Source: a virus (Duplodnaviria > Heunggongvirae > Uroviricota > Caudoviricetes). From it: 64,000 nucleotides of DNA. The notes beneath the pieces were generated by a model, which saw only the letters and a list, made by a program, of their open reading frames with translations, was not told the DNA's origin and made no database searches. The translations under genes were made by a program, and so were the position numbers. Below, in pieces: positions 11,196 through 38,589 of this stretch (position 1 is the first letter of the stretch; each line of letters opens with the position of its first letter). The stretch lies in the IMG/VR virus record IMGVR_UViG_3300025778_000009. One strand, given 5' to 3'.

Positions 11196-11215
11196 TAAAA
11201 AGGTTTTTATTTTTA

Positions 11216-11830: not shown

Positions 11831-11841
11831 GAGAATAGCAA

Positions 11842-12195
11842 ATGGCAAACCCAAATATTTTAGCTTTATCTTCTGTAACTGGTAAATCTAATACTGCTCA
11901 GATAACTACTGGTGGTGTTACTATACTATCAGGATCAGCCGGTACTGTTCTTAAAGTAAATACATTAATGATCGGTAATATGGACGGTGTTACTGCATAT
12001 GGTGTTACTATGAACTACAATAACGGTATCACTAGTGTTACAGTAGCTAACAATATATCTGTTCCTGCACAATCTACTCTTACTATCATAGATAAAACTG
12101 CCACATTTTATATGGAAGAAAATCATACTATAGTTTTATATGCATCGCAAAATAATAAATTAAATAGTATTATTAGTTATGAGATAATGTCCTAA
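11842..12195 (+). CDS. hypothetical virion protein
   Basis: Clean ORF within the fiber operon with a Thr/Ser/Asn-rich composition. Confidence 0.45.
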   Translation: MANPNILALSSVTGKSNTAQITTGGVTILSGSAGTVLKVNTLMIGNMDGVTAYGVTMNYNNGITSVTVANNISVPAQSTLTIIDKTATFYMEENHTIVLYASQNNKLNSIISYEIMS

Positions 12196-16843: not shown

Positions 16844-16866
16844 TAAATTATCTTACCTTTGAATCT

Positions 16867-16874
16867 TATAAATA
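16867..16874 (+). promoter_or_regulatory. T4-type late promoter motif TATAAATA
   Basis: Exact TATAAATA lies about 35 nt upstream of the ATG at 16910. A gp55 homolog is encoded in this window. Confidence 0.4.
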
Positions 16875-16909
16875 CTTAAAAATACATTTACTTTTAGGAA
16901 AAATCTAAA

Positions 16910-22895: not shown

Positions 22896-23277
22896 AGATA
22901 TTATTTCACAATCCTTAGGATTAGAACCTTTAAACGATGAGATTATAAATCAAGTAGTTGTACCACCTTCTACTATTAAAAATGATTATGATTATGCCAG
23001 AGATAATCTTTATAATATAATAGAAAAAGGTAATACTGCATTAGAAGATATTATGGATATTGCTAAACAGTCTGAGTCAGCGCGCGCATTTGAAGTAGTA
23101 ACTAATCTTATTAAAACTATGGTTGATGCTAATAAAGATCTTTTAGAACTTGCTAAAAAGAAAAAAGAATTAGATAAAACTGAGCAACCAGAACAAACTA
23201 ATGTAACAAATAATAATCTGTTTGTTGGTTCATCTGCAGAACTACTTAAAATGATTAAAGATAAAGCTAATGGCTGA
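22888..23277 (+). CDS. gp16: terminase small subunit
   Basis: Small helical protein immediately upstream of and overlapping the large terminase gene, which is the gp16 position. Confidence 0.6.
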   Translation: MAKDIISQSLGLEPLNDEIINQVVVPPSTIKNDYDYARDNLYNIIEKGNTALEDIMDIAKQSESARAFEVVTNLIKTMVDANKDLLELAKKKKELDKTEQPEQTNVTNNNLFVGSSAELLKMIKDKANG

Positions 23278-24859
23278 TATTTACCTAGGTAATAAAAATC
23301 TTAAAAATAAAGATGTAAAAATATCTTTTACTCCAGAACAAATGGCAGAATTCTGGAAATGTGCTAATGATGTTGATTATTTTTGTGAAACATATGTAAA
23401 AATTGTATCTGTAGATAAAGGTTTGGTTCCATTTAAACCATTTCAATATCAAAAGAATATGTTTAAAACTTTTAATGATAATAGATATACAATTTGTAAA
23501 ATGCCTCGTCAGGTCGGTAAGACAACTGGTGTTGTAGGTTATTTACTACATAAGATTCTTTTTAATGAAAATTATAACATAGCAGTTCTTGCTAATAAAC
23601 AAGTACAGGCTAGAGAAATTCTTTCACGAATTCAACTTGCATATGAATGGTTACCTAAATGGCTTCAACAAGGAGTAGTTGAGTGGAATAAAGGTAACAT
23701 TGAACTTGAAAATGGTTCTAAGATACTTGCATCTGCTACATCATCATCTGCTGTTCGTGGTCAATCTTATAACTTAGTTTATCTTGACGAGTTTGCTTTC
23801 GTGCCTCGTAATGTTCAAGATGCATTCTTTGCCTCAGTATTTCCTACAATATCTTCTGGTAATACATCTAAGCTTCTTATAACATCTACACCTAATGGAA
23901 TGAATTTATTCTATAAACTGTGGGTTGATTCAGAAAATGGTAACAATGATTATGCACGAGTAGATGTTCATTGGTCTGATGTTCCTGGAAGAGACCAAGC
24001 CTGGGCTGATCAAATGATCCGTAGTACATCTATAGATCAATTTAGACAAGAATTTGAATGTGAATTTTTAGGATCTGCTAACACTCTTATTCATCCTTCT
24101 GCAATGGCTAAATTAACATTTATAAATCCAATTTCTGTAAATCAAGGTGTAAAATTATTTAAACAACCAGAAAAAGATCACGTATATGTTATGATAGTAG
24201 ATGTGGCAGAAGGACTAGGTCTTGATAGTTCCGCTTTTGTAGTTGTAGATATCACTATTAATCCATACGAGGTAGTTGCAACATATCAAGATGCTAGTAT
24301 TTCTCAGTTAATGTTTCCTAATGTACTTTATAATGTAGGAAGATATTTCAATGAAGCTGCTATTTTAGTTGAAACTAATATTGGATCACAGGTTGTTAAT
24401 ATTTTACAACAAGATTTAGAATATGAAAATGTCGTAATGACTAAAACTAACGGTAGAAAAGGTACTGTTATTGGTAGCGACGGTTTATCTAAATTAGGTG
24501 TAAAAACTACTAAATCAGTTAAAAGAATAGGTTGCGCAAATCTTAAGTCTATTATAGAAAATCAAAAAATAATATTAAATGATTATGATGTAATAAATGA
24601 ACTTTCAACTTATGTAATGGATGGTTCTTCTTATAATGCAGAAGACGGGTATCACGATGATTTAGTTATGTGTATGGTGCTTTTTGCATGGTTGATAAAT
24701 CAGCCATATTTTAAAGATATTTCTAATTCTGATATTAGATTACTATTGCTAGAAGGCCAAGAAGAAAACTTTACTCCTTTTGGATTTATTGATGATGGTC
24801 AAGAAGATCTAAATAGAGTATTAAACGATTCAGAATTTGCAAATTTTCTTCTAAATTGA
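23270..24859 (+). CDS. gp17: terminase large subunit (ATPase/nuclease)
   Basis: The Walker A motif KMPRQVGKTT matches T4 gp17 SRQLGKT. The Walker B motif is LVYLDEFAF. The position is syntenic. Confidence 0.85.
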   Translation: MADIYLGNKNLKNKDVKISFTPEQMAEFWKCANDVDYFCETYVKIVSVDKGLVPFKPFQYQKNMFKTFNDNRYTICKMPRQVGKTTGVVGYLLHKILFNENYNIAVLANKQVQAREILSRIQLAYEWLPKWLQQGVVEWNKGNIELENGSKILASATSSSAVRGQSYNLVYLDEFAFVPRNVQDAFFASVFPTISSGNTSKLLITSTPNGMNLFYKLWVDSENGNNDYARVDVHWSDVPGRDQAWADQMIRSTSIDQFRQEFECEFLGSANTLIHPSAMAKLTFINPISVNQGVKLFKQPEKDHVYVMIVDVAEGLGLDSSAFVVVDITINPYEVVATYQDASISQLMFPNVLYNVGRYFNEAAILVETNIGSQVVNILQQDLEYENVVMTKTNGRKGTVIGSDGLSKLGVKTTKSVKRIGCANLKSIIENQKIILNDYDVINELSTYVMDGSSYNAEDGYHDDLVMCMVLFAWLINQPYFKDISNSDIRLLLLEGQEENFTPFGFIDDGQEDLNRVLNDSEFANFLLN

Positions 24860-24918: not shown

Positions 24919-27021
24919 ATGCCATTTCAAGTAAGTCCTGGTGTAAACGTATCAGAAATTGACTTGACAACAATCGTACCTGCAGTATCTACTACAACTG
25001 GTGCGTTTGCTGGAACATTCAGATGGGGTCCTGTAGATCAGGCATTCCTAGTATCTTCTGAAGATGAACTAGTTCAATATTTCGGTAAGCCTACAGCCAA
25101 CAATTACGAAACATTTTTTACTGCAGCTAACTTCCTAGCTTACGGTAATCAATTATATATTTCTAGAGCAGCTAATACTGGAACATATAATGCTTATGCA
25201 TATACTGGCGGTACTGCTGCAAACGTAACAGTAAGAAATTCTGATGATTTTAATATTCAAAGTGGATCTTTCTCTTCTAATCAGCCATTTATTGCTAAGT
25301 ATCCAGGTGCCCTAGGTAATTCTCTAAGAATTTCTATTTGCCCTACTGCAAATGCCTATAGCAGCATGCTAACAGCTGCAAATATGGCTAATAATTCACC
25401 AAATGGTAATGCAGCTACTTATGCTGCTAATACTACTGCACAATTCATGCTAGATATTGGTTCTAGTGTAGCTAACATAGTAGTTAATTGTGCTAATACA
25501 TCTGGTTTCGGTGCATTATTTGCTAATGATTCTGCATTTAACATATATTCAAACATCAACTTAAATGATTACATTAAAGTAGGAGATGCAACTACAGGTG
25601 TACAATATATGCAAGTTGCATATTCTACAATACCAGTCGTTGATCCTTCTAACGTACAACAATATTGGTTTAATATTGGTTTTACTGATGTATTAAAAGT
25701 AAAATCTGGTATTAATATGTCTTATCTTGGTGGAAACACTGCAGTTACTAGATTCTGGGAATTTTATAATGCAGTTGATGGTGCACCTGGTGTTTCTAAT
25801 TACGTAAATCAACGCACTTCTAATAATGCAATTAGAGATCAACTTCATATTGTTGTTGTTGATAATCAAGGTGTTATTACCGGTGTGCCTAATCAAATTT
25901 TAGAAGTATGGCCTAACCTTTCTCGTGCAACTGATGCAAAAGGTGAACAAGGTGGTTCAATTTATTACCGTCGCGTATTAGATCAATCATCTAGATATGT
26001 TTGGGCAGCTACAGATTATGTTGGTTCAGGTGTTACTAATAATCAGCTACAACCTCCTAACTTTAGCGCACCACACTATATAAACTTTGTAAAAGGTACA
26101 GATGGTCCAACAGAAAGTGATATTTCAATATCTGCAGTAGCAACAGCATATGATGTATTTGCTTCAGCAGAAAGTATTGATATTTCATTAGTATTAACTG
26201 GTAAAGCTTCAATATCAGCAGGGTCTGGAGAAGTTCTTCCAAATTACCTAATTGATAATATTGCTGAATCAAGAAGAGATTGCGTAGTTTTCGTATCTCC
26301 TCCTTATGAATCTGTAGTAGGTGTACCCGGTTTTGAAGGATCTAATTTAGTTGCATTCCGTAATTTATTAAGATCCTCTTCATACTCTGTACTTGATTCT
26401 GGTTACAAATATCAATATGACAAGTATAACGATACTTACCGTTGGGTTCCACTAAATGGTGATATTGCCGGTCTATGTGTAAGAACTGATAATACACGTG
26501 ATCCATGGTACTCACCAGCTGGGTTTAACAGAGGTCAGGTAAAAAATGTTGTTAAATTAGCATTTAATCCAAATCAAGCTAACCGCGACCTTCTTTATAA
26601 GAATGGTGTTAATCCAGTTGTTACATTCCCAGGTCAAGGAACTGTATTGTATGGGGATAAGACAATGTTAGCACAACCTTCTGCATTTGATCGTATTAAC
26701 GTACGTAGATTGTTCATTGTGCTTGAAAAAGCAATTTCTACTGCTGCTAAGTTTGCTCTATTTGAATTCAATGATGATTTTACTAGAGCAGCATTCCGCA
26801 ACCTCGTTGAACCATATCTAAGAGATGTTCAAGGTCGTCGTGGTATCTATGACTTTAAGGTAGTTTGTGACGCAACAAACAATACGCCAGAAGTTATTGA
26901 CGGAAATAGATTTGTAGGAGATATTTACATTAAACCAGCACGCTCAATTAACTTCATTCAGCTTAACTTCGTTGCAGTACGCACCGGTGTTCAGTTCGAT
27001 GAAATTGTTGGTAAGTTCTAA
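24919..27021 (+). CDS. gp18: tail sheath protein
   Basis: The N-terminus MPFQVSPGVNVSEIDL...GAFAGTFRWGPVDQAFLVSSEDELVQYFGKPT resembles T4 gp18 (GAFAG/KFQWGP..FG.PT). The length is 700 aa and the gene sits between terminase and tube. Confidence 0.85.
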   Translation: MPFQVSPGVNVSEIDLTTIVPAVSTTTGAFAGTFRWGPVDQAFLVSSEDELVQYFGKPTANNYETFFTAANFLAYGNQLYISRAANTGTYNAYAYTGGTAANVTVRNSDDFNIQSGSFSSNQPFIAKYPGALGNSLRISICPTANAYSSMLTAANMANNSPNGNAATYAANTTAQFMLDIGSSVANIVVNCANTSGFGALFANDSAFNIYSNINLNDYIKVGDATTGVQYMQVAYSTIPVVDPSNVQQYWFNIGFTDVLKVKSGINMSYLGGNTAVTRFWEFYNAVDGAPGVSNYVNQRTSNNAIRDQLHIVVVDNQGVITGVPNQILEVWPNLSRATDAKGEQGGSIYYRRVLDQSSRYVWAATDYVGSGVTNNQLQPPNFSAPHYINFVKGTDGPTESDISISAVATAYDVFASAESIDISLVLTGKASISAGSGEVLPNYLIDNIAESRRDCVVFVSPPYESVVGVPGFEGSNLVAFRNLLRSSSYSVLDSGYKYQYDKYNDTYRWVPLNGDIAGLCVRTDNTRDPWYSPAGFNRGQVKNVVKLAFNPNQANRDLLYKNGVNPVVTFPGQGTVLYGDKTMLAQPSAFDRINVRRLFIVLEKAISTAAKFALFEFNDDFTRAAFRNLVEPYLRDVQGRRGIYDFKVVCDATNNTPEVIDGNRFVGDIYIKPARSINFIQLNFVAVRTGVQFDEIVGKF

Positions 27022-27035
27022 GGGAGGAATGACAA

Positions 27036-27587
27036 ATGGCATTTAATATCAACGACATTCGTGCCCAACTTACACTTGGTGGTGCGAGACCTAGTTTATT
27101 CCAGGTTATTATTAGTAACCCAGTTAATCCAATTGCAGATCTAAAGTTGCCTTTCCTATGTAAGGCAGCTCAACTTCCTGCTTCATCTTTAGGCACTATT
27201 GAAGTACCATACTTTGGTAGAAAGCTTAAGATTGCTGGAGATCGTAAATTTGATCCATGGACTGTTACTATCATCAATGATGAAGATTTCTTAGTAAGAA
27301 ATGCTATGGAAACTTGGAATAACTCAATTCAACTTTATCAACAAAATATTACTGCTCTCGGAACTTCTGCACCAGCTGTGTATAAGTCTCAAGCAACTGT
27401 AACTCAGTTTGGTAAAGACGGTACAATTCTAAGAACATATCAATTCAATGGTATCTTCCCTGATCAAATCTCAGCTATTGATTTGGCATGGAATACTACT
27501 GATGAAATTGAAGATTTCCAAGTATCATTCCAGTATGACACATTCGAAGTATTGAATAGTATTACTGGTAATGCTGGTGGCGCTTAA
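27036..27587 (+). CDS. gp19: tail tube protein
   Basis: RPSLFQVIIS and KIAGDRKFDPWTVTIINDED match T4 gp19 RPNLFQVEIS and NVAGDRTFDDWTVTVMNDE. Confidence 0.9.
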   Translation: MAFNINDIRAQLTLGGARPSLFQVIISNPVNPIADLKLPFLCKAAQLPASSLGTIEVPYFGRKLKIAGDRKFDPWTVTIINDEDFLVRNAMETWNNSIQLYQQNITALGTSAPAVYKSQATVTQFGKDGTILRTYQFNGIFPDQISAIDLAWNTTDEIEDFQVSFQYDTFEVLNSITGNAGGA

Positions 27588-27655: not shown

Positions 27656-29248
27656 ATGGTACAATTATTTGGATTTGAAATCAACCGCAAGGTTAAAGAA
27701 CCAATAGAATCATTTGCACCTCCTGTAAATGATGATGGCGCAGTAATTGTTGCAGCCGGTGGTGCATATGGCACCTATATTGATTTAGATGGTACTGCAC
27801 GTACTGAATCAGAACTAGTTTCCAAATATCGCGAAATTGCATTAGAAGCAGATATCGAAAGAGCTGTTGACGATATTGTCAATGAAGCCATTGATACTGA
27901 TGCAGAGAAAATTGTAGAAATTAATCTTGATAAAATTAAATATAGTGAAAATGTAAAAGAAAAAATTAGAGAAGAATTTGAAATTATAATTGAACTTCTT
28001 AATTTTCATAATGAAGCATATGATCTCTTTAAAAGATGGTATATTGATGGCAGAATGTATTTCCATGCTATCATAGACGAAAAAAACCCTAGAGAAGGTA
28101 TTAAAGAGCTTCGTTATATTGATCCTAGAAAAATTCGTAAGATAAGAGAAATTAAAAAGAAAACTAAAGGTGATACTACGGTTGCTTATGCTAATCGCGA
28201 GTATTATGTATATAATGAGCGTAATTTTTTACCTGCTGGTGGTAATGCAGGTCTTCCAATGGATGCAGGCGCTGTTAATGGCGTAAAAATTGCTGCAGAC
28301 TCTATTATTCATGTTACATCTGGTTTAATGGATAAAAACAACGCATTTGTTTATTCATACCTTCAAAAAGCTATTCGCCCTCTTAATCAATTACGTACAT
28401 TAGAAGATGCAACCGTTATTTACCGCATCTCACGTGCTCCAGAGCGTCGTATTTTTTATATTGATGTTGGCAATCTTCCTAAGATTAAAGCTGAACAATA
28501 TATGAGAGACATGATGACTAAACATAAGAATCGTTTAGTCTATGATGCTACTACCGGTGAAGTTCGTGATGATCGTAAATATATGACGATGCTAGAAGAT
28601 TATTGGTTGCCAAGAAGAGAAGGTAATCGTGGTACAGAAATTACTACTCTTCCAGCAGGTCAAAATTTAGGTGAGATGGCAGACGTTACATACTTTCAAC
28701 AGAAGTTATATCAATCTCTTAACGTTCCTGTATCGCGTCTTCAATCATCTTCTGAAGTATTCAGTTTAGGAAAAGCTACTGAAATTTCTAGAGATGAAGT
28801 AAAGTTTGTTAAGTTTGTAGGACGTCTGAGAAAAAGATTCTCTCATCTTTTAATGAAATCATTAGAAAAGCAATTAATTCTTAAAGGAATAGTATCTGAA
28901 AATGATTGGAATGAATTATCTAATCAAATTAATTTTGATTTTGCAATAGATAGTCATTTTGAAGAATTTAAAGATACAGAAATATTACAAAGTAGATTAG
29001 CTAATCTAACAGAAATACAGCCTTTTATTGGTAAGTATTTTTCTGAAGAATGGGTAAGAAAAAATATACTTCATCAAACAGATAAAGACATAGAAGATAT
29101 GATGGCTCAAATAGAAGCAGAGGTATCTAATCAGCCCGAGCCAGACGTAGAAACACAACCAGCTGAACAGCCTGCTAATGCTAATAACAACATTAAAATA
29201 CATGTAACAAGTTCAGCAGTACCAACTGTAGATGGTGCTGGTAGATAA
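27656..29248 (+). CDS. gp20: portal vertex protein
   Basis: FKRWYIDGRMYFHAIIDEKNPREGIKELRYIDPRKI and VIYRISRAPERRIFYIDVGNLP...LVYDATTGEV...MTMLEDYWLPRREG align closely with T4 gp20. Confidence 0.9.
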   Translation: MVQLFGFEINRKVKEPIESFAPPVNDDGAVIVAAGGAYGTYIDLDGTARTESELVSKYREIALEADIERAVDDIVNEAIDTDAEKIVEINLDKIKYSENVKEKIREEFEIIIELLNFHNEAYDLFKRWYIDGRMYFHAIIDEKNPREGIKELRYIDPRKIRKIREIKKKTKGDTTVAYANREYYVYNERNFLPAGGNAGLPMDAGAVNGVKIAADSIIHVTSGLMDKNNAFVYSYLQKAIRPLNQLRTLEDATVIYRISRAPERRIFYIDVGNLPKIKAEQYMRDMMTKHKNRLVYDATTGEVRDDRKYMTMLEDYWLPRREGNRGTEITTLPAGQNLGEMADVTYFQQKLYQSLNVPVSRLQSSSEVFSLGKATEISRDEVKFVKFVGRLRKRFSHLLMKSLEKQLILKGIVSENDWNELSNQINFDFAIDSHFEEFKDTEILQSRLANLTEIQPFIGKYFSEEWVRKNILHQTDKDIEDMMAQIEAEVSNQPEPDVETQPAEQPANANNNIKIHVTSSAVPTVDGAGR

Positions 29249-29259
29249 TTTAATAATTT

Positions 29260-29267
29260 TATAAATA
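29260..29267 (+). promoter_or_regulatory. T4-type late promoter motif TATAAATA
   Basis: Exact TATAAATA lies 13 nt upstream of the ATG at 29280. Confidence 0.4.
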
Positions 29268-29279
29268 TATTATAGATTT

Positions 29280-29561
29280 TTGGAGGTAATTATGGCGGAT
29301 ATAGAAGATCTTTTAGTTCATGCTTGGAATAAAGATGCGGTAAATCTTAAGCCTGCATTAGATGATATTATGACAGCAAAAGTAGCAGAAAGAATGGATG
29401 ATACATTCATGGATGTTGCTGCTTCAATTTATGGTAGTACTGATGGTGATCCTAATAATGAACCTCTAGACGGCGATTCAGATTTAGATACACAAGATAA
29501 CACAGATAACGAAGGAACCCCAGAAGATGCCGATGAATTTGAAGCAAATAATCAAGAGTAA
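29280..29561 (+). CDS. small highly acidic protein, probably a prohead core protein (the T4 gp67/gp68 position)
   Basis: 93-aa ORF with an Asp/Glu-rich C-terminus DGDPNNEPLDGDSDLDTQDNTDNEGTPEDADEFE, sitting between the portal and protease genes. Confidence 0.5.
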   Translation: MEVIMADIEDLLVHAWNKDAVNLKPALDDIMTAKVAERMDDTFMDVAASIYGSTDGDPNNEPLDGDSDLDTQDNTDNEGTPEDADEFEANNQE

Positions 29562-31443
29562 GTTGTTTGAAGTAGAACAACCACAATCTCAGGGTGAGAA
29601 AAATTTCAAAGCCCTTCACAAGGCAGTTGACCATAAGAACTTGGTTCCTGGGGTTACTGATCAAGACCATGTTTTTAACGGTTCAACAAAACCATATGAC
29701 AACAAATATCTTAACTCATATAAGCCAGGCGAAGATCGTACTGCTTATGATAAGACATTAAAGTTAGACGATAAAGAAACAAATAATGGTTATGAAACTG
29801 CTAATGTAAAAGAAGCAATGGGTTCTATGATCGATAAAACACATAAAGATAGTCAACATAAAGCATCTTTTGGTTCATCAAACATTTCAGATATGATGAG
29901 AAAAGAAAAACAAAGAAAAGCTGCTGCAGAAGGCAAAAGAAATTCTTCTTTATCATCTAGAGCATCTTCAAATAGACAAGTACATTCTGAAGAAGTAGAA
30001 ACTACAGATGAAAATTATTTTAGATCAAATAATCAAACATCATTTCATAAAAGAGAAAAGATGTATAAATTAGCTTCTAACAAGCCATTTCATAGTGATA
30101 TGCAAACACATATTATACATGTTCATGCTTCTAAAGATGGCGGACCTGTAGAAGTTCATAAAGAAAAAATTCAAGCAAAAGATAAACATAAAGCAATGAC
30201 TGATGCTCAATTTAAATATTCACCTAAAAAAGGCTATAAAATTAGTGATACAAAATATAAAGGTGTAATGAAAGAAGAAATTGAGCTTCTTGACGAAGCC
30301 GCTTGGACTGAAAAGAATTTGCCTGCTGGTAATTATAATCAAGGCGGTCATACTGAAAAAGGCGACCTTCATCATATTGAAGTACATCCAGAAGTACTTA
30401 AGAAGCATGGCATTTCACATCAAGTATCACATGCCGGTGAATATGGACAGACTCATCATTTTGAGCATCCATCACATGGTAAGGTAGCAGTGTATCAATC
30501 AGATTTAAATAAAAAGACAGGCAACCCAATTATGTCAGTTAGAACTTATGGCCCACAAGGTGCTAAGCCAGTCGCTCATAAATTTGCTAAAAAATTATCT
30601 GGAAATATGATGCATTCTTATAGTGAATCAGTAAATGAAGATTATGATGATACACCAGAAGAAGTATCAATGGTAAGAACTGAACTTAGAGCAATTATTA
30701 ATGATGCACAAAGTCTTTTAGATAATATGCCATCAAACATGCACATTGAACCATGGGTACAATCTAAAATTGCAGTAGCAAAGTCTATGGTTTGTGGTGT
30801 ACATGACTATATGTTATATTCTGATGATGCAGGTGTGCCTTCTGATCAAAGAGTTGCTCCTATGCCTTCTATGTCTAATCCTTTTATGTCTAGTGAAGAA
30901 ACTACTCCTTCACAAAAGAAAAAAATGATGAAAGATGTGCCAGTAGCTGGAACTATGAGTCCTTCAGAAGGTGCTTCAGTTATTACTAAAGAAGAAACAG
31001 ATGTAGTAGATGAAAAACTTTCAGATGAGAAATTAAAGAAGTTTGCTAAACTAGCTCCTCCTTATGATAAAATTACACATGCTGATAAAATTGTAGCAGT
31101 AAAGAAAAAAGAAGCTGGACAAAAAATTCTTCCAGAAGCTTCTATGCTAGGTAAAGAATGTTCTGAATGTAATGATGGTCATTATAAAGAAGAAAAAGGT
31201 AAAATGGTTTGCGATGAATGCGGTCATATGGCTAAAAATGAAATGAAAGAAGCTTCTGTTATTAAGAGTCATGCTATGAATATGGCTAAACAGGCTCTTC
31301 ATAAATTAAAGCCAAAAATGAAGTACACTATGCATACTAAAATGAAAACACCAAAAGAACATATTAAGATGGATGAAAGTATTCTTTCTGATGAAGAAAA
31401 AGCTCGTCTTGATTCTATCATGAATACAGAAATGGGAGAATAA
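29527..31443 (+). CDS. large Lys/His/Glu-rich internal head (prohead core) protein with a C-terminal CxxC...CxxC zinc ribbon
   Basis: 638-aa ORF in the head-assembly module. His-rich tracts include HIIHVHASKDGGPVEVHKEK and HHIEVHPEVLKKHGISHQVSHAGEYGQTHHFEHPSHGK. The C-terminus carries CSECNDGHYKEEKGKMVCDECGH. Confidence 0.55.
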   Translation: MPMNLKQIIKSKLFEVEQPQSQGEKNFKALHKAVDHKNLVPGVTDQDHVFNGSTKPYDNKYLNSYKPGEDRTAYDKTLKLDDKETNNGYETANVKEAMGSMIDKTHKDSQHKASFGSSNISDMMRKEKQRKAAAEGKRNSSLSSRASSNRQVHSEEVETTDENYFRSNNQTSFHKREKMYKLASNKPFHSDMQTHIIHVHASKDGGPVEVHKEKIQAKDKHKAMTDAQFKYSPKKGYKISDTKYKGVMKEEIELLDEAAWTEKNLPAGNYNQGGHTEKGDLHHIEVHPEVLKKHGISHQVSHAGEYGQTHHFEHPSHGKVAVYQSDLNKKTGNPIMSVRTYGPQGAKPVAHKFAKKLSGNMMHSYSESVNEDYDDTPEEVSMVRTELRAIINDAQSLLDNMPSNMHIEPWVQSKIAVAKSMVCGVHDYMLYSDDAGVPSDQRVAPMPSMSNPFMSSEETTPSQKKKMMKDVPVAGTMSPSEGASVITKEETDVVDEKLSDEKLKKFAKLAPPYDKITHADKIVAVKKKEAGQKILPEASMLGKECSECNDGHYKEEKGKMVCDECGHMAKNEMKEASVIKSHAMNMAKQALHKLKPKMKYTMHTKMKTPKEHIKMDESILSDEEKARLDSIMNTEMGE

Positions 31444-31444
31444 G

Positions 31445-32491
31445 ATGGAACACAAATATCTTAATACCATTAAAGCAATTAAAGCTAAACGTAAAGAAAT
31501 GCAAAAAGAAGAAGTAGAGACTAATGAAGGTATTGTAAAAGGTACTGCTTCATTAGTTAAGCATGCTGTTGGTGTACCGGTTAAAACAGCCGGTAGAGTT
31601 GCAATGGGCGCAGTAAATGCAGTTCATTCAGTAGCTAGTGGCGTTAAAAATACAGTAAAAGATGTAAAAGATGCATCTAAAAAAGTAAAAGCTGCATATT
31701 CTGAAGAAGTAGATCTTACTGAAGTATTAAAAGCATCTGATCCTGTTGGTAAGTGGATTGACGATTTTGTTCAATCTGATAATCCTAAGTTTAAAGATAA
31801 AACTAAAGAAGAACGTCGTAAGATGGCTTTAGGGGCTTACTATGCAGCTCAAAAAGAATCTTACGAAAATTCAACCGAAGAATTAGCAGAAGGTCGTGGA
31901 CGTCCTCCTAAAGAAGGTTCTAAAGCATGGCATGCTGCACAAACTAAATCTTCTGCAGGAGAAAGCTCCGATCAAGAAGCAGATAAGAACATTGTTAACC
32001 AAATGAGAAAGAAACCTGTAGGTGACACTCATCATCTAATATTTGGTAATGGTGAAAAGAAAAACGTGCATGTAAAGCATGTCAATAAAGCACTTTCTAT
32101 GTTAGCTAATACTCCAAAACCTGCTGATAGAGAAAAACTTCAATCAAGTCTAAGTCATTCTCATAAGAGATTTATGGATACTGTTACATCTGGTAAAGCA
32201 GTAGAAGATTCAGCTCGCCCTAAAGTATCACTTGGCAAGATGAAAGCTGAAGCTGTAGAAATGTCAGATACAGGTCCAGAAAAAGCTTATATTGAGAATG
32301 GTAAATTGGTAGTAAGAAAAAAAGCAAGAAAAGATATAAAAATTGAAAATCTTGACCTAGAAATTGAAAATTCACTAAATAATTTATACTTAAATTTATC
32401 AGAAAACAATCAAGAATTGTTTTTAGATCTAATTTCTTCTGAAGATGGATTATTAGATTTAATTAATTTTGCTAAGGATCAAGGATTTTAA
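31445..32491 (+). CDS. Lys-rich internal head protein with an AT-hook-like motif
   Basis: Contains the AT-hook-like core GRGRPPKEGSK. The composition is highly basic, and the start overlaps the previous stop. Confidence 0.5.
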   Translation: MEHKYLNTIKAIKAKRKEMQKEEVETNEGIVKGTASLVKHAVGVPVKTAGRVAMGAVNAVHSVASGVKNTVKDVKDASKKVKAAYSEEVDLTEVLKASDPVGKWIDDFVQSDNPKFKDKTKEERRKMALGAYYAAQKESYENSTEELAEGRGRPPKEGSKAWHAAQTKSSAGESSDQEADKNIVNQMRKKPVGDTHHLIFGNGEKKNVHVKHVNKALSMLANTPKPADREKLQSSLSHSHKRFMDTVTSGKAVEDSARPKVSLGKMKAEAVEMSDTGPEKAYIENGKLVVRKKARKDIKIENLDLEIENSLNNLYLNLSENNQELFLDLISSEDGLLDLINFAKDQGF

Positions 32492-32492
32492 T

Positions 32493-32753
32493 ATGAGTAC
32501 TGTAATAAAGCCATTGGCAAATACTATCAATATTGATTCAACAGCCAATAATATGAATGGAGCAACTTTGTTGAAAGTTGTTAATTCATCTACAACTACA
32601 TATGCAACTTTAGTATTTAAATATGCTAATGGTACTCAATACGCAGATTTGCCAATGGCACCTCTAGAAAGTGTGATTGTACAAAAGGCAAATACTGATT
32701 TAGTTATTGGAAACAGTATGTATGCCTGCGCAATTGCTTGGCCAAAAGGATAA
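32493..32753 (+). CDS. small hypothetical head-module protein
   Basis: An ATG at 32493 lies directly after the upstream TAA. The tracked ORF 32469..32753 uses an earlier in-frame start. Confidence 0.35.
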   Translation: MSTVIKPLANTINIDSTANNMNGATLLKVVNSSTTTYATLVFKYANGTQYADLPMAPLESVIVQKANTDLVIGNSMYACAIAWPKG

Positions 32754-33436
32754 TACAAATGAAACTTATTACTGAAGTAAATGAAGAATTAAAATACATT
32801 GCTGAAGATAGCGCTGAAGGTAAAAAGAACCTTTATATTGAAGGTATATTCCTTCAAGGAGGTCTTGTAAACCGTAATGGCAGAATGTATGATCCTGAAA
32901 TTCTTGAAAAAGAAGTCAATCGCTATCATAAAGAAAATATTGATGCAGGGCGTGCTTATGGTGAACTAGGTCATCCATCAGGTCCATCTATCAATTTAGA
33001 GCGCGTTTGTATGATGATTAAGTCTCTTAGAAGAGAAGGTAATAACTTCATTGGTAAAGCTAAGATTATGGATACACCATATGGACAGATTGTAAAAAAC
33101 CTTATGTCAGAAGGTGCCAGACTAGGTGTTTCTTCTCGTGGTATGGGCTCTTTAAAAGAAGTAAATGGTGTAAATGTAGTTCAAGATGATTTTTATCTTG
33201 CTACAGCTGCAGACATTGTTGCTGATCCTTCCGCTCCAGACGCTTACGTTAATGGTGTTATGGAAGGCGTTGAGTGGGTTTGGAACAATGGTGTATTAAA
33301 GGCTGCTGCTCCTCAAAAAGCAGAAGAGCTTGTACAGGTTGCAGAAGTTCATAAAGAAGTAATTAAGAAAGCATCTAAATCTGAATTAGCTGAAGCTAAG
33401 ATTAGAGTTTTCCAACATTTTCTTTCAAAATTATAA
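32738..33436 (+). CDS. gp21: prohead core protease
   Basis: FLQGGLVNRNGRMYDPEILEKEV...GELGHPSGPSINLERVCMMIK...GVSSRGMGSL matches the T4 gp21 motifs IQGGVINANGRMYP, GELDHPS and GVSLRGLGSV. Confidence 0.85.
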   Translation: MAKRIIQMKLITEVNEELKYIAEDSAEGKKNLYIEGIFLQGGLVNRNGRMYDPEILEKEVNRYHKENIDAGRAYGELGHPSGPSINLERVCMMIKSLRREGNNFIGKAKIMDTPYGQIVKNLMSEGARLGVSSRGMGSLKEVNGVNVVQDDFYLATAADIVADPSAPDAYVNGVMEGVEWVWNNGVLKAAAPQKAEELVQVAEVHKEVIKKASKSELAEAKIRVFQHFLSKL

Positions 33437-33472: not shown

Positions 33473-34555
33473 ATGGATAATGTAAATAATCAAGTAGATG
33501 TAAATGAAGCAGATGCTGCTTCAAATATGTCCACAATTCAAGCAAAGCCAACTGAAGTGTCACGTTCAGAGCTTATGGCAAAGATGGTAGACTATGCTGC
33601 AAAAGCAAGCAAAGAAGATCTTGCTGCCTTTATTGCTAGCATTGGCGGTGAGCCAGCTGAAAACGATCATGTACCTACTAATGATGAAATTGCTAACAAC
33701 AATAAAGGTGCAGAAAACGGTGCTGGTGATAATTCTGCTAAGAATATGGCATCAATTAAATCATCTGGTAAGCATGCAGATCCAATGCCATCAATCAAAG
33801 AAGATCTAGAAATGATTTTCGGAGATTCAGATGACCTTTCTGAAGATTTTAGAGTTAAAGTTTCTACACTATTTGAAGCAGCAGTTTCAACTAGAGTAAA
33901 CTTAGAAGTTGCTAAGATTGAAGAAAATTATGAGACACTTCAAAACAATCTATCAGAGCAATATGAACAAGCTCTTGAAGAGTCTGTAACCGAAATTAAG
34001 AATGAAATGGTAGAAAATATTGATAACTACCTAAATTATGCTGTTGCTGAATGGATGACAGAAAACAAACTAGCTATTACTAATAATATTCGCACTGAGA
34101 TGGCAGAATCATTTATTGCTAGTTTGAAGAATGTATTTGAAGATCATTATGTAAATATTCCTGAAGATAAGGTTGATGTTGTAGAAGCATTAACTTCTGA
34201 ACTAGAAGAAATTAAAGCTCGTTTGAATGAAACAACTGAAAAGAATATTGAATTATCAAAGGTTGTTAATGAAAAGAACGTAGCAGAAATTGCTAGTTCA
34301 ATGGCAGAAGGAATGACAGATACTCAGAAAGACAAGTTCTTTAAGCTTACTGAGGCTGTTAGCTATAATGATGCTGATGAATTTCGCAAAAAGATTGCTA
34401 TCATTAAAGAAACATATTTCCCAAAGGCTCAGGAAGTAAGAGTTGCTCAGGATCAGCTTCTTAGCGAAACTGTTGAAGAGCCTGTAAAGGAGCCTTCACT
34501 TGATCCTAATATGCAAAGCTATGTTTCTTCAATCTCAAGAACTCTTAAAAGATAA
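33473..34555 (+). CDS. gp22: prohead scaffolding core protein
   Basis: Acidic, coiled-coil-rich 360-aa protein between the protease and the major capsid protein. Confidence 0.7.
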   Translation: MDNVNNQVDVNEADAASNMSTIQAKPTEVSRSELMAKMVDYAAKASKEDLAAFIASIGGEPAENDHVPTNDEIANNNKGAENGAGDNSAKNMASIKSSGKHADPMPSIKEDLEMIFGDSDDLSEDFRVKVSTLFEAAVSTRVNLEVAKIEENYETLQNNLSEQYEQALEESVTEIKNEMVENIDNYLNYAVAEWMTENKLAITNNIRTEMAESFIASLKNVFEDHYVNIPEDKVDVVEALTSELEEIKARLNETTEKNIELSKVVNEKNVAEIASSMAEGMTDTQKDKFFKLTEAVSYNDADEFRKKIAIIKETYFPKAQEVRVAQDQLLSETVEEPVKEPSLDPNMQSYVSSISRTLKR

Positions 34556-34599: not shown

Positions 34600-35982
34600 A
34601 TGAACGGTTTAAATGAAGAATTAGTTGCAAAGTGGAAGCCAGTGCTTGAGCACTCAGATCTTCCAAGAATTGCTGACGCCCACAAGCGTTCAGTAATTGC
34701 TACACTTCTAGAAAATACTGAAAAGGAAATGCGTTCTGAAGCAATGGCACGTGGTTCTTATAACGGTATTACATCTCTTAACGAAACTGGTATCAATGCT
34801 GTTGGTACTGGCGGTTATGGTTCAGCTGGCGGCTCAGGCGTTGCTGGTTACGATCCAATCCTTATCTCATTGATTCGTCGTGCAATGCCTAATCTTATTG
34901 CTTATGACGTTTGCGGTGTTCAACCAATGACTGGTCCAACTGGACTTATCTTTGCTATGCGTTCACAATATGCAAACTCAACTGCAAAAGGTTCAGAAAC
35001 ATTCTATGACGAAGTTAACACTGGTATGTCATCTGGCTTCAATGGCACTGGCGTATTTGGTCAAGGTACTGGTTCAGGCATTGGTGCTAACAACGTTGGT
35101 TCAACACCTGACAACACTGGCGGTGTTGGTTCATACAACTATCAAGCTGGTGCTCCTACATCAACAGCAGAAGCTTTTGGTACAGGTACTACATTCCCAG
35201 AAATGGCCTTCTCAATTGATAAGGTTTCTGTAACTGCAGTATCACGTGCTCTAAAGGCAGAATACACTATTGAATTGGCACAAGATCTAAAGGCTATCCA
35301 TGGATTGGATGCTGAGACTGAATTGTCAAACATTCTTCAGTCTGAAATTCTTGCTGAAATCAATCGTGAAGTTATTCGTGCTATTAACATTACTGCACGT
35401 CAAGGTGCTACAGACGGTACTACACAAGCTGGTATCTTCGATCTTGATACTGATTCAAACGGCCGCTGGTCAGTTGAAAAGTTCAAGGGTCTTATGTTCC
35501 AACTTGAAAGAGAAGCTAACAAGATCTCAAAAGACACACGTCGTGGTAAGGGTAACCTAGTTATCTGCTCTTCAGATGTTGCATCTGCTCTTCAGATGGC
35601 TGGCGTACTTGACTATACACCTGCTCTTGCTTCTAACAACCTACAAGTTGATGATACTGGCAATACATTCGCTGGTGTTCTAAACGGACGCTTCAGAGTA
35701 TATGTTGATCCATATACAACTGGTAACTATATGACTGTTGGCTATAAGGGTGCTAATGCATTCGATGCAGGTATCTTCTATTGCCCATACGTTCCACTAC
35801 AAATGGTTCGTGCAGTTGGTCAAGCAGACTTCCAACCAAAGATTGGATTTAAGACTCGTTATGGAATGGTAGCAAATCCATTTGCTCGTTCACAACAAGG
35901 TTCACCAAATCTTTCAGACGGTACACTATCTGCTTCTACTAACAGCTACTATCGTAGAACAATCATCCAAAACATCTTCTAA
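34600..35982 (+). CDS. gp23: major capsid protein
   Basis: The N-terminus LVAKWKPVLEHSDLPRIADAHKRSVIATLLENTEKEM is gp23-like. The 460-aa length is typical of cyanophage-type gp23. It follows gp22, and strong RBS and promoter-like sequence lie upstream. Confidence 0.85.
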   Translation: MNGLNEELVAKWKPVLEHSDLPRIADAHKRSVIATLLENTEKEMRSEAMARGSYNGITSLNETGINAVGTGGYGSAGGSGVAGYDPILISLIRRAMPNLIAYDVCGVQPMTGPTGLIFAMRSQYANSTAKGSETFYDEVNTGMSSGFNGTGVFGQGTGSGIGANNVGSTPDNTGGVGSYNYQAGAPTSTAEAFGTGTTFPEMAFSIDKVSVTAVSRALKAEYTIELAQDLKAIHGLDAETELSNILQSEILAEINREVIRAINITARQGATDGTTQAGIFDLDTDSNGRWSVEKFKGLMFQLEREANKISKDTRRGKGNLVICSSDVASALQMAGVLDYTPALASNNLQVDDTGNTFAGVLNGRFRVYVDPYTTGNYMTVGYKGANAFDAGIFYCPYVPLQMVRAVGQADFQPKIGFKTRYGMVANPFARSQQGSPNLSDGTLSASTNSYYRRTIIQNIF

Positions 35983-36300: not shown

Positions 36301-36587
36301 TGACCATCTTTACGTTTTAACCAAAGATCGCCATCATCACCTACTGCCATTGTTACTGCTTTATTAGGATCTGGTTGATGCATTCTCACTAATGATATTT
36401 TATATTGATCAGGATTATCAAATTGTGTCTTCTTCATTTCTGTAGTATCAACTTTAGATGCACCATTAAGAGTTATACTAAAAGCAGTATCTAAAGGTAC
36501 ACCATCTGCTGTTGCTGCTCTTGCTCCTTCAGCAACCAAAGCAAGAGGAGCTACAGGTAGGAATGCAAAGAAACTACGACGATTCAT
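36276..36587 (-). CDS. small secreted protein with a twin-arginine (Tat)-type signal peptide
   Basis: MNRRSFFAFLPVAPLALVAEGARAATA contains an RRxFF motif, a hydrophobic h-region and an AxA cleavage site. Local GC is higher than the surroundings. Confidence 0.5.
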   Translation of the reverse strand: MNRRSFFAFLPVAPLALVAEGARAATADGVPLDTAFSITLNGASKVDTTEMKKTQFDNPDQYKISLVRMHQPDPNKAVTMAVGDDGDLWLKRKDGQWRKVVTE

Positions 36588-37780
36588 TGTTTCACCTCCG
36601 GTAATGGTGCCTTAGGAGCTAATCCAATCAATGCATCAATCATTTGTGGAGTGACTACAATAGGCAATCCATGCTTATCCAAACCTGAACCAAGACCTTC
36701 TTGTACCTTAAGACCAGCAACTGCCTGAAGAATAGGAAGTGCAGAAGCAAGCTTAGTAGCAATATAACGATCGTTAACAGCTTTCTGAACTGATTGATCA
36801 AACTCAAACGTATCTGCCCATCCAATAAAGTCTAGAGTAATACCAACAGAAGCAAAGTATTCTTTTACGCTCTTTTGAATACTTTCCATCATAGGTACCA
36901 TATCTTCATTAGCCTGATCAAATGTACGTTTGCCGATTTCAGCACAAACAAGTGTCTGAACCTTCTTACGGCCTACATCATCCATAACATTAGCCAATGA
37001 ACGCCCATAATAAACAGATGTAAAGATTACTTGTGGATCATTACGATTACCTTGTTGTGGAACTACACCAAAGCGGTAAAGAAACTTAGCCGCATCAACT
37101 TCTGATACAGATGCGCCAATAGAAACACCTGCTGTAATATTCAAACCTTCCTTTGATTGACAAGGAAATGATTGATCTGAAGAAGCAGTTCCACGATTAG
37201 CAGACTTTACCCATTCACGAGAGTAGGGGGTACGATCAACAATAATCAAACGACCTGTAGGTACATAAAAGTCCCAATTCAAAAAGCCGCCTGAATTACT
37301 CAACTTAGCATGAGGAACAATAAAACGCTTTGCAGCAATCTTATTATCACTCAAATATGATTCAGAATCAAACTTGGCTTGAGTATCTTTGTTTGCACCA
37401 ACATCTGGAATCCAGAATGCTGATTCATTAGGAAGAATTGTATATGCTTCTGTCTTGTCAACAGTATCAGCATATGCAAATGCCTGTTGAGGATGTGCAA
37501 TTATCACAAGCAATAACAGCGCAGTAGATGCAGCCAGAAATTCTTGAATTTTATTCTTCCAAATAGCAAACAGAGTAACAAAAAGCACTAGCGTTGAAAT
37601 AAAATACACCGTGTTATTGATTGCAAAAACAAAACTCGTTGTAAGGTAAGTTGTTGTACTGTTATCAAATTGACTGCCTGCAACAGATCCTGTAATCAAA
37701 GTAGCCAAAGGATTAACTATACTAATTATTGTCATATAGACAAAAAAAGTAATAGCAGTTTTAATAATATTGCCGATCAT
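36584..37780 (-). CDS. integral membrane protein with three N-terminal TM helices and a large extracytoplasmic or soluble domain
   Basis: Hydrophobic segments are IIKTAITFFVYMTIISIV, FVFAINNTVYFISTLVLFVTLFAIW and AASTALLLLVIIAHP, followed by a 280-aa polar domain. Confidence 0.5.
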   Translation of the reverse strand: MIGNIIKTAITFFVYMTIISIVNPLATLITGSVAGSQFDNSTTTYLTTSFVFAINNTVYFISTLVLFVTLFAIWKNKIQEFLAASTALLLLVIIAHPQQAFAYADTVDKTEAYTILPNESAFWIPDVGANKDTQAKFDSESYLSDNKIAAKRFIVPHAKLSNSGGFLNWDFYVPTGRLIIVDRTPYSREWVKSANRGTASSDQSFPCQSKEGLNITAGVSIGASVSEVDAAKFLYRFGVVPQQGNRNDPQVIFTSVYYGRSLANVMDDVGRKKVQTLVCAEIGKRTFDQANEDMVPMMESIQKSVKEYFASVGITLDFIGWADTFEFDQSVQKAVNDRYIATKLASALPILQAVAGLKVQEGLGSGLDKHGLPIVVTPQMIDALIGLAPKAPLPEVKQ

Positions 37781-37803: not shown

Positions 37804-38589
37804 TTACAGTTTAATTAAATCTTCTAGTTGATATTTCTGTGACATATAGCTAGAAACATTGTCTAAGACTGTTCTTTCTAAATCACCTTCACGTCTAGGA
37901 TATTCATTAACAGTAAAGTCTACATTATTAACTTTTTTAAAAGCTCTAATAATAGCTCTTACTGTATAACCAATACCAGTACCTAAATTTTCCAAACCAT
38001 TAGCAGGTTTGTCTATTGCTTTAATTAAAGCTTCACATATTTCGTTTACATGAACATAATCTCTAATACAAGTACCATCAGGTGTATTATAATCTGTACC
38101 GTAAAGATTAAATTCACCGGTATTTGCAGCTTTAATTAAATTATAAAGAAGACCGTCCGGGTTAGTAGGAGGAAAACCATCAGTTCCTATTACGTTATAA
38201 AATCTAAAAATAGTATAATTAAGATCTTTTTTATTGCAAACTTCTTTTACCACATCTTCACATGCACGCTTTGAAAATGCATATGGATTATTAGGGCTAG
38301 ATGCAGTCCCTGAAGAAGCAAAAATAAAATTATTATAAACAATCTTATTAAGTATATTAATTGTTCCACCAAGATTGTTATTATAATACTTAGAAGGTTC
38401 TTTAACCGATTCGTTAACCCTTACTAGTGCAGCAAGATGAATTACTGTATCTACAGAATAAAAAGTGAGTTTATCATTAATATCACCTTCATACTCTATT
38501 ACTTCATACAAGTCATTATAATGTGAAAGCATCTTTACTAAATGCTGACCAATATAACCCTTACTGCCTGTAATAATAATTTTTTTCAT
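37804..38589 (-). CDS. NAD(P)-dependent sugar epimerase/reductase (extended SDR family, GalE/RmlD-like)
   Basis: The N-terminal Rossmann motif is KIIITGSKGYIGQHL (TGxxGxxG). The catalytic YxxxK is NPYAFSKRACE. Confidence 0.7.
   Translation of the reverse strand: MKKIIITGSKGYIGQHLVKMLSHYNDLYEVIEYEGDINDKLTFYSVDTVIHLAALVRVNESVKEPSKYYNNNLGGTINILNKIVYNNFIFASSGTASSPNNPYAFSKRACEDVVKEVCNKKDLNYTIFRFYNVIGTDGFPPTNPDGLLYNLIKAANTGEFNLYGTDYNTPDGTCIRDYVHVNEICEALIKAIDKPANGLENLGTGIGYTVRAIIRAFKKVNNVDFTVNEYPRREGDLERTVLDNVSSYMSQKYQLEDLIKL

Follow-up and report, generated by a model that had tools for sequence, protein, structure and literature searches.

This locus raises the question of what an uncultured T4-like phage encodes between its portal and prohead protease genes, where two long open reading frames (ORFs) lie in tandem. 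The DNA analyzed is a stretch of 64,000 nucleotides (nt), referred to here as the window, from IMG/VR virus record IMGVR_UViG_3300025778_000009, assigned to the Caudoviricetes. The two ORFs, orf638 (638 amino acids [aa]; 29527..31443) and orf348 (348 aa; 31445..32491), are on the plus strand, and both are real, as the same calls are made on independent metagenome contigs. A first-pass annotation had described them as two large, basic candidate proteins of the head interior that could be packaged and ejected with the genome. The analysis presented here points instead to the N-terminal and C-terminal halves of one split gene. The reading that we favor, with a probability of roughly 0.6, is that this gene, carried by a clade of uncultured aquatic T4-like (Kyanoviridae-like) phages, encodes a polyprotein that is targeted to the capsid and cut by the head protease. 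The capsid-targeting system of phage T4 is the textbook route by which proteins are loaded into a phage head and injected, and it also serves as an engineering tool. To our knowledge, such systems have barely been charted outside the T-even phages.

One mosaic gene, split in two

A search of 5.8 billion proteins returned 82 relatives of orf638 and 344 relatives of orf348, all of them unnamed and all metagenomic. The orf348 protein recurs in identical form on at least 17 public metagenome contigs, with both genes called there. Mapping of modules by BLAST showed that most relatives are single proteins of 620 to 760 aa, with some reaching 1188 aa, that contain modules of both ORFs. The module order in these single-protein relatives is orf638 aa 3-100, M3 (orf348 aa 87-140), M2 (orf638 aa 361-455), M4 (orf348 aa 151-300), and finally the C-module (orf348 aa 308-348). 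Two proteins, P0010 (808 aa) and P0016 (797 aa), are direct fusions of an orf638-like and an orf348-like part, and precursor size in the family ranges from 348 to 1188 aa. Judged from these sequences, orf638 and orf348 together make up one shuffled multimodule gene in two halves and are not independent proteins. What is new here is that modules of both ORFs are found in one protein in most relatives and that fused and split forms share one slot in the genome.

Use of this slot between portal and protease was seen in loci L001-L007, L009, L012, and L013. There, L005-L007 have one gene of 661 aa and L009 one of 454 aa, L012 has the 808-aa fusion, and L013 has a split pair of 534 and 302 aa. Within IMG/VR, every locus with the conserved N-terminal domain described below (the N-domain) places it between portal and protease (19/19), and the same slot is used by 29 of the 60 loci that have M2 only. 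The big gene is missing from cultured relatives: at this position P-SSM7 carries one 118-aa ORF and Pelagibacter phage Mosig five small ORFs.

A frameshift or sequencing error was rejected as the cause of the split because the arrangement recurs on independent contigs and because orf348 has its own ribosome-binding site (RBS), GGGAG, and its own ATG, located 1 nt after the orf638 stop codon. The two ORFs were also rejected as paralogs (direct BLASTP, E > 1). The idea that orf638 ends in a truncated C-module was unsupported (hmmsearch E = 0.095 among 18 sequences), and no further copies of the modules were found within the window.

An N-terminal leader of the capsid-targeting type

Structures were predicted with AlphaFold2 (AF2) using family alignments. 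The mean predicted local distance difference test score (pLDDT) was 70.8 for orf348 and 56.6 for orf638, in which 306 of 638 residues scored below 50. The first 15 residues of orf638 (29527..29571, plus strand) constitute the leader MPMNLKQIIKSKLFE, a predicted amphipathic helix (AF2 helix at residues 5-13) that ends in L-F-E at residues 13-15 and is followed by VEQPQ. Alignment of 78 N termini of the family revealed a short leader, then a near-invariant [L/I]-x-E, and then the conserved N-domain; [LI]xE occupied the leader-end column in 39 of 44 aligned homologs. In 95 of 113 N-domain proteins, the leader closes with [LIVM]xE and V.(E/Q)P follows at once; the most frequent leader length is exactly 10 aa. 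The common leaders are MKTFKQLISE↓V, MKTFKELMAE↓V, and MKTFNEIIAE↓I, where the arrow marks the putative cut.

The capsid targeting sequence (CTS) of T4 is MKTYQEFIAE (PMC8442874), in which residues 4 and 7 serve targeting and residues 8 and 10 serve processing (PMC9026906). The MKTF-type leaders of the family are nearly the same as this sequence and have F/Y, a hydrophobic residue, I/V/L/M, and E at positions 4, 7, 8, and 10, respectively, so that all four are conserved. The leaders read from the T4 genome are MKTYQEFIAE↓A for the internal proteins (IPs) IPII and IPIII, MKTFKEFTSTTTPVSTITE↓A (MKTFKEF...ITE↓A) for IPI, and MELITELFDE↓D for Alt. A strict pattern derived from the T4 CTS, MK[TK][FY]..[LFIMY][LIVMT].E, fits 25 family proteins; in a control search of 113 kb of T4 in six frames, it matched only IPII and IPIII. 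We regard MPMNLKQIIKSKLFE as a candidate capsid-targeting sequence and candidate first cleavage site.

Directly behind the leader is the N-domain (orf638 aa 16-96; 29572..29814, plus strand), with the consensus V.(Q/E)P.SQGEKNFKALH..HKNLVPGVTDQDHVFNG...AYDK. No other part of the family is as well conserved (19 invariant columns), and the domain is always N-terminal. A HMMER search of 1.84 billion representative proteins found it in 57 cluster representatives, in 55 of them at residues 1-21; the two weakest matches, P0236 and P0237, were rejected as spurious internal low-complexity repeats. AF2 confidence for the domain is low (~50). The N-domain possibly docks to the prohead core.

The second half begins with a secondary leader, MEHKYLNTIKAIKAKRKEMQKEEVETNE (orf348 aa 1-28; 31445..31528, plus strand), which is predicted to be helical (AF2 helix 4-27). 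It ends with the C-module (aa 305-348; 32357..32488, plus strand), predicted as a three-helix bundle with the pattern LNNLY..LSE.N..LF..L...E.G...L..FA..QGF and a pLDDT of ~90. This module is always found at the extreme C terminus, 75 proteins end with it, and PDB sequence profiles show a weak similarity to designed armadillo repeats. The C-module is a candidate second anchoring element, and the N- and C-terminal elements may be independent anchors, one of which was kept by each half after the split.

Leaders of this type were also seen on other genes. In ~1 Mb of aquatic T4-like loci, 17 distinct ORFs begin with the strict T4-CTS pattern; a rough estimate of chance occurrence is far below 1. 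Such ORFs are located at 11858-12151 of L010, 5511-5969 of L014, 4437-4829 and 4826-6778 of L015, and 5662-6201 of L016 and in eleven further loci. Most are unrelated to the polyprotein family, and a DUF6321 protein and Melnitz gene 17 fit the pattern. Just outside it are S-WAM2 gp170, which combines MKTFKQLREE with M2, and the 650-aa nucleotidyltransferase-like Melnitz gene 18 (MKKFSEIIE↓A). To judge by their N termini, CTS-type leaders on unrelated ORFs may define a wider set of packaged proteins.

Acidic linkers with protease-type sites

The modules of the family are separated by acidic linkers with the consensus K-E-E-V-E-(E/Q)-[LVI]-D-E, after which the next residue is mostly Ala. The motif occurs 372 times in 200 family proteins, compared with 4.3 expected from composition-preserving shuffles. 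It occurs twice in orf638 and once in orf348, compared with ~0.01 expected from shuffles, and three of the four matches in the 21,185 ORF residues of the window fall in these two ORFs.

The first linker of orf638, EEIELLDE (aa 250-257; 30274..30297, plus strand; pLDDT <50), contains a candidate cut site after E257 and coincides with BLAST module breakpoints at 245-259. The second, EETDVVDE (aa 489-496; 30991..31014, plus strand), contains one after E496, within a stretch (480-516) that is predicted to be disordered, and ILPE (aa 534-537, plus strand) is a further candidate that precedes the zinc ribbon. The orf348 linker, EEVDLTE (aa 87-93), is followed by M3, the two lying within 31703..31867 (plus strand). 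Farther downstream, TEELAE (aa 144-149) supplies a cleavage-type L-A-E that is followed by the AT-hook core GRGRPPK (together aa 147-156; 31883..31912, plus strand). The column before the AT-hook holds [LI]xE in 41 of 50 sequences, the family form being L-(D/A/E)-E↓(A/G)-(K/R)-R-G-R-P-(R/P)-K, and segment 141-151 has a pLDDT of <50. All the linker sites of the window lie in stretches that AF2 scores at pLDDT <50, flanked by confidently folded modules. This anatomy points to cleavage into several small modules, and not to two large proteins that stay intact.

The linker sites match the rule of T4 gp21, which cuts after Glu with Leu/Ile at P3. The rule can be read from sites in T4 substrates, namely gp23 (L-T-E65↓A), gp24 (L-R-E10↓S), and the IPs (I-A-E10); propeptide lengths for gp23 and gp24 are from PMC9958956. 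The major capsid protein (MCP) of the window has L-N-E62↓T ~31 aa before RRAMPNLIA, which matches the distance in T4 gp23. Because this site parallels gp23 L-T-E65↓A, the same specificity is plausible for the window protease. The N terminus of that protease reads MKLITE↓V (32759-32776), an I-x-E site that hints at self-processing and is analogous to the T4 gp21 site of its own, LIE-9 (PMC9026906).

Folded modules as possible cargo

Both proteins are highly charged, as first described, with D+E at ~15% in each, and Lys-rich (13.2% in orf638 and 13.5% in orf348). The description "basic" was overstated for the whole proteins, which have isoelectric points (pI) of 8.2 and 9.0 and net charges of +3 and +6 (orf638 and orf348, respectively), although some of the predicted fragments are clearly basic. 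If the linkers were cut, the predicted products would include fragments of 26 kDa (His/M2), 11.5 kDa (ribbon), and 6.5 kDa (M3) and one of 17.5 kDa that begins with the AT-hook (orf348 aa 150-308; pI 9.7, net +9).

The His clusters noted earlier are borne out: orf638 has 35 His (5.5%, versus 0.3-1.7% in neighboring structural proteins), 11 of them in aa 271-320. The His-rich alpha/beta module (aa 275-368; 30349..30630, plus strand) is predicted by AF2 as a beta-sheet domain with a pLDDT of 73-84. It is restricted to close relatives, in which 10-11 of its His are conserved in 15-16 of 17, and it is a candidate metal-binding cargo domain. The adjoining M2 module (aa 371-431; 30637..30819, plus strand) is a predicted helical hairpin (377-431) with an EPWVQSKIA motif and a pLDDT of ~90. 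M2 is widespread and is also found in small hypothetical proteins of the cultured cyanophages S-WAM2, S-H9-1, and S-SM2.

The zinc ribbon, CSEC-x13-CDEC (orf638 aa 545-565; 31159..31221, plus strand), is predicted as two beta-hairpins with a pLDDT of 71-81 and with strands at 553-556 and 559-562. None of its four Cys (C545, C548, C562, and C565) varies among the 13 close relatives with this module. The four Cys of the earlier claim are thus present and conserved, but their spacing is CxxC-x13-CxxC and not x15, and the ribbon is not terminal, since its end is 73 residues before the orf638 C terminus. Pfam matches were marginal (Ephrin_rec_like, 23.4 bits against a cut-off of 23.1; Zn_ribbon_RRN7, E = 0.013). 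The ribbon block is wholly absent from P0008, P0009, and P0015. Because the zinc ribbon and the His domain are present or absent as blocks and more distant relatives carry other inserts, these modules behave like cargo. Three of the longer relatives, P0224 (1188 aa), P0041, and P0054, have up to ~11 acidic linkers and tandem "LDELSKKT..." modules, along with an EF-hand/dockerin-like Ca-binding motif, KIDANKNGKID.DFKIL; relatives are labeled "EF-hand domain-containing protein" in BFVD.

M3 (orf348 aa 94-141, within 31703..31867, plus strand) has the pattern VLKASDPVGKWIDDFV.SDNPKF..K.KEERRKMALGAYYA and is predicted to be helical (95-140) with a pLDDT of ~90. It is present in ~120 proteins, nearly always after ...[LIV]xE and before (N/K)EEVE..[LIV]xE. 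One cyanophage protein that matches M3 is annotated as DUF6321; assignment of M3 to DUF6321 or DUF3008 was rejected, as six M3 segments searched against Pfam gave only DUF3008 at E = 0.035. M3 was also seen in P0128 (499 aa; L014 6001-7500), together with a HicA-toxin-like domain (Pfam, 7.4e-7). P0128 has no CTS-type leader, its neighbors are PhoH, DsbA, and ferritin genes, and it lies outside the portal-protease slot.

The AT-hook reported in the first-pass annotation is present as GRGRPPK at orf348 aa 150-156, and 66 of 200 family proteins keep RGRP, most often in the form LDEA(K/R)RGRPRK. It shares with eukaryotic HMGA-type AT-hooks (PF02178) an R-G-R-P core flanked by K/R, (K/R)RGRP(R/P)K, and differs from them in being a single copy located directly after a putative protease site. 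The Pfam AT_hook model (~13 residues) gave a weak match in 2 of 19 M4-segment members, with a best E of 0.017, and the window copy was not among them. DNA binding by this motif is plausible from its sequence. The His enrichment, the Cys, and RGRP are all conserved across homologs, that is, more than chance would give.

Downstream of the AT-hook, and forming the core of the 17.5-kDa fragment, is M4 (orf348 aa 180-255; 31982..32209, plus strand), predicted as a beta-hairpin and three helices with a pLDDT of 90-97. Its profile matches the actinobacterial nucleoid protein sIHF (4itq) with E = 6.4e-4, and this match bears on a rival explanation in which orf638 and orf348 would be late nonvirion DNA-binding or nucleoid-associated proteins. 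They would work in the cell on DNA that is being replicated or packaged, by means of the AT-hook, the zinc ribbon, and an sIHF-like helical module, and their genes would simply happen to lie in the head operon. Such a role would also be in keeping with the conservation of the AT-hook and zinc ribbon and with the occurrence of M2 and M3 in genes outside the structural block. However, the sIHF match extends over residues 14-58 only, and the DNA contacts of sIHF lie in its H2TH motif and lid, downstream of the matched helices (PMC3627587). M4 was therefore rejected as an sIHF-type DNA binder, and because the matched N-terminal helices do not contact DNA, the match is kept as a lead only. A nonvirion role would moreover leave the T4-CTS-like leader and the conserved protease-type sites unexplained, and the position of all 19 N-domain loci strictly between portal and protease argues against it. 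We consider this explanation improbable.

Database searches placed neither protein in a described family. Pfam and PHROGs gave marginal Cys-pattern matches for orf638 and none for orf348, and neither protein had a tblastn match at E ≤ 1e-3 among 50,697 phage records, of which T4 was one. PDB sequence profiles gave no match for the orf638 family, and a Foldseek search of the PDB gave no match at E ≤ 0.001 for either model. Matches in BFVD were only to uncharacterized or "EF-hand" proteins of uncultured phages and cyanophages. By these comparisons, orf638 and orf348 are not sequence members of the IP or gp67/gp68 families or of any Pfam or PHROG family.

The head operon and its late-promoter core

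The plus strand of the window from 23.2 to 36 kb is a T4-type structural block, as assigned with Pfam and PHROGs. It consists of the large terminase (23270-24859), the tail sheath (24919-27021), the tail tube (27036-27587), the portal (27656-29248; Portal_T4, 8e-175), orf89 (29292..29561), orf638, orf348, orf86 (32493-32753), a gp21-family prohead protease (32759..33436; Peptidase_S77, 2.8e-38; PHROG head maturation protease, 2.8e-82), the scaffold (33473-34555; T4_CASP, 6.6e-66), and the MCP (34600-35982; Gp23, 6e-143). The protease is 40% identical to T4 gp21 and lies ~270 nt downstream of orf348. Among cultured phages, Mosig is the nearest, with 60% identity in the protease. The genome is AT-rich, with a G+C content of 33%.

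The octamer TATAAATA, the core of T4 late promoters, is located at 29260..29267 (plus strand), 24 nt 5' of the start codon (ATG) of orf89, with a GGAGG RBS in between. It is depleted in the window, with 6 copies versus 15.7 expected, all on the plus strand (1531, 16867, 24865, 27609, 29260, and 43243), and three of the six are immediately 5' of the sheath, portal, and orf89 genes. Because the core and RBS directly precede orf89, orf638 and orf348 appear to be part of a late head-gene transcription unit.

The small acidic protein encoded by orf89 (pI ~4), with a helical N-terminal half and an acidic tail, is a positional and compositional analog of T4 gp67 by comparison of the sequences; its PHROG "prohead" match is weak (E = 0.027). 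The gene overlaps the orf638 start by 35 nt, and a small orf89-like ORF is found upstream of the big gene in L001-L007, L009, and L013. On the other side, the beta-rich 86-aa product of orf86, between orf348 and the protease, has only weak PHROG matches, to families with no assigned function. It is kept in L001-L007 and absent from L012 and L013, and Mosig has similar beta-rich small ORFs in its portal-protease slot.

A second rival would make the products external proteins of the head, neck, or decoration type, assembled on the capsid surface or at the portal. Its one positional argument is adjacency to the portal and MCP genes, and attachment could conceivably be through the conserved terminal domains. 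Searches of Pfam, PHROGs, and the PDB brought up nothing similar to Hoc, Soc, neck, or whisker proteins; orf638 and orf348 are largely disordered and contain acidic linkers, and their N-terminal leader is of the internal-protein type, all of which makes an external location very improbable. The head operon, the late-promoter core, the CTS-like leaders, the nearby gp21-family protease, and the conservation of AT-hook and zinc ribbon lend real, if indirect, support to the part of the first-pass annotation that placed the products inside the head.

Other features of the window lie apart from this locus. A very large ORF of 2207 aa (1747-8370, plus strand) precedes the structural block. Directly after the MCP, on the minus strand, are a gene for a 398-aa protein that is hydrophobic in N-terminal segments and matches Band_7/SPFH weakly (36584-37780) and, adjoining it, one for a 261-aa NAD-dependent sugar epimerase/dehydratase (37804-38589), both unusual neighbors for a head operon. 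The tail/baseplate part contains two islands (10001-12000 and 16001-18000) with a G+C fraction of 0.42, versus ~0.33 elsewhere.

Comparison with known head proteins

The family shares with the T4 IPs a leader of ~10-19 aa ending in L/I-x-E, a gp21-family protease in the genome, and variable cargo behind a conserved leader, and the resemblance extends in part to charge, as some of the predicted mature pieces here are basic. The T4 IPs differ in being proteins of 95-193 aa that are cut once, are strongly basic, and are encoded far from the portal-protease slot, whereas the family described here has a near-neutral precursor of 348-1188 aa with several cleavage-type linkers, a conserved 80-aa N-domain, and a C-module. 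It had been supposed that the genes for injected IPs of T4 lie between portal and protease. The T4 genome contradicts this: only genes 67 and 68 lie between genes 20 and 21, and ipII, ipIII, and ipI are at 65.4-66.4 and 73.6 kb, 28-36 kb from the slot, with alt at 123.5 kb.

T4 Alt, a 682-aa ADP-ribosyltransferase, is a second point of comparison, as a large packaged protein with an N-terminal leader (MELITELFDE↓). Alt is also processed at its C terminus (PMC9026906), which gives a precedent for signals at both termini such as the N-domain and C-module. It differs in that it is an enzyme of known fold and not a string of small modules, shows no homology to the proteins described here, and is encoded at another locus. 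In the multisite processing proposed for it, the family is similar to gp22 or to the phiKZ-like inner-body proteins. The inner-body or ejection proteins of phiKZ, 201phi2-1, and SPN3US likewise include many head-internal proteins that are cut after Glu at short motifs. The propeptides of these giant phages have multiple redundant sites, their protease is a diverged gp21 homolog, and some of the products are DNA associated (PMC9026906). The motif in those phages is S/A-x-E, compared with L/I/V-x-E here; their lineage, genes, and genome size are also different, and nothing similar in sequence was found. In the literature searched, no paper connected AT-hooks with internal proteins of phages or a CTS with cyanophages or aquatic T4-like phages.

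The closest positional counterparts are T4 gp67 and gp68, which share the slot between genes 20 and 21, and orf89 is like gp67 in size, helical N-terminal half, and acidic tail. The products of orf638 and orf348 differ from gp67 and gp68 in being 2.5 to 4.5 times larger and in having a leader of the IP type. The common slot nevertheless suggests a third rival, in which the proteins are accessory components of the prohead core or scaffold, like gp67, gp68, or gp22, that help to build or size the core, are degraded at the linkers, and are expelled before DNA packaging, so that the virion would keep and eject no functional product. The many cleavage-type linkers, as in gp22, and the extensive predicted disorder (306/638 residues of orf638) would suit such a role, and T4 gp22, gp67, and gp68 are degraded to small peptides by gp21 (PMC9958956). 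However, the leader matches the CTS of the IPs, which are retained in T4, and not gp67 or gp68, and the conservation of folded M3, M4, M2, and zinc ribbon modules and of an AT-hook is hard to explain if all are discarded. The module content is also very variable among close relatives, unlike what would be expected of an essential size-determining scaffold, and homology to gp68 was rejected (hhalign of both family alignments, probability 0.1%, E ~0.5; nothing significant by BLASTP). We therefore regard a discarded core protein as rather unlikely.

Proposed route and points against it

In the favored reading, that of a capsid-targeted polyprotein, orf638 and orf348 would be late genes, cotranscribed with the gp67-like ORF and the protease gene. 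The orf638 product would enter the prohead core by means of its capsid-targeting leader, its N-domain, or both, and the orf348 product would do so by means of its secondary leader, its C-terminal three-helix module, or both. The gp21-type protease would then cut after the Glu of [L/I/V]-x-E, at the leader end and in the disordered acidic KEEVExLDE linkers, and release small folded modules: the His-rich domain with the M2 hairpin, the zinc ribbon, M3, and the basic 17.5-kDa fragment with the AT-hook at its front. Basic and DNA-binding pieces would remain with the AT-rich genome in the head and exit with it at infection. The sequences themselves show the order and synteny of the genes, the split mosaic architecture, the presence of the protease, and the conservation of the leader, the linkers, the AT-hook, and the Cys and His residues; packaging, cleavage at the candidate sites, DNA binding, and ejection are all steps that we infer. 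That the pieces with the AT-hook and zinc ribbon remain bound to the AT-rich DNA and accompany it at ejection is a tentative proposal, with somewhat less than an even chance of being correct, and an anti-defense role is speculation that we hold improbable at best.

Several observations weigh against this reading. The leader of orf638, MPMNLKQIIKSKLFE, has diverged from the MKTF type and is tied to it only through alignment of the N-domain that follows, and an 80-aa conserved N-domain behind the putative cut site is left unexplained, since a CTS of 10 aa suffices in T4. The leader of orf348 ends in a degenerate T-N-E, compared with L-D-E in relatives (P0094, P0097, and P0098; KEEV(E/R)LDE), and its first canonical site is for that reason L-T-E at aa 91-93; with this degenerate site and no N-domain, the targeting route of orf348 is also unexplained. 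Plain [LI]xE counts are not above chance (three in each protein, compared with 4.6 expected in orf638 and 3.4 in orf348), so that the argument for cleavage rests on conservation and placement, and the acidic linkers could be mere flexible spacers. The whole proteins are nearly neutral. Their mature parts have no homology to T4 IPI, IPII, or IPIII that was detectable by tblastn, and the negative result with gp68 adds to this. M2 and M3 are not confined to the head operon, and no cultured phage with the N-domain was found among the 50,697 records searched.

A more far-reaching version joins these elements. A T4-type CTS conserved over a very large evolutionary distance would load a shuffled polyprotein, which the head protease would dice into AT-hook, zinc-ribbon, His-rich, and, in relatives, Ca-binding and other modules; these would condense or mark the AT-rich genome and be coinjected as early effectors, and the same leader would tag unrelated proteins such as the nucleotidyltransferase-like protein of Melnitz. 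As a whole, we consider this combined version doubtful. Were it correct, it would give a predictable "injectome" for uncultured marine and freshwater myophages.

Implications

If the reading of a capsid-targeted polyprotein is wrong, the locus would still document an uncharacterized family of mosaic proteins whose place in the head operon is strictly kept. If it is correct, the conservation of a CTS over such a distance and the polyprotein design would be of interest to specialists in phage assembly. The same signal and protease rule would operate in abundant uncultured aquatic T4-like phages and would load a fast-evolving, domain-shuffled polyprotein. The family would then include a possible phage-encoded AT-hook protein for DNA packaging or protection. 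A simple sequence rule, consisting of a leader and [L/I/V]-x-E linkers, would predict which proteins these phages inject. The portal-protease slot would be a variable cargo locus in these phages and a place in which to seek host-takeover or anti-defense modules.

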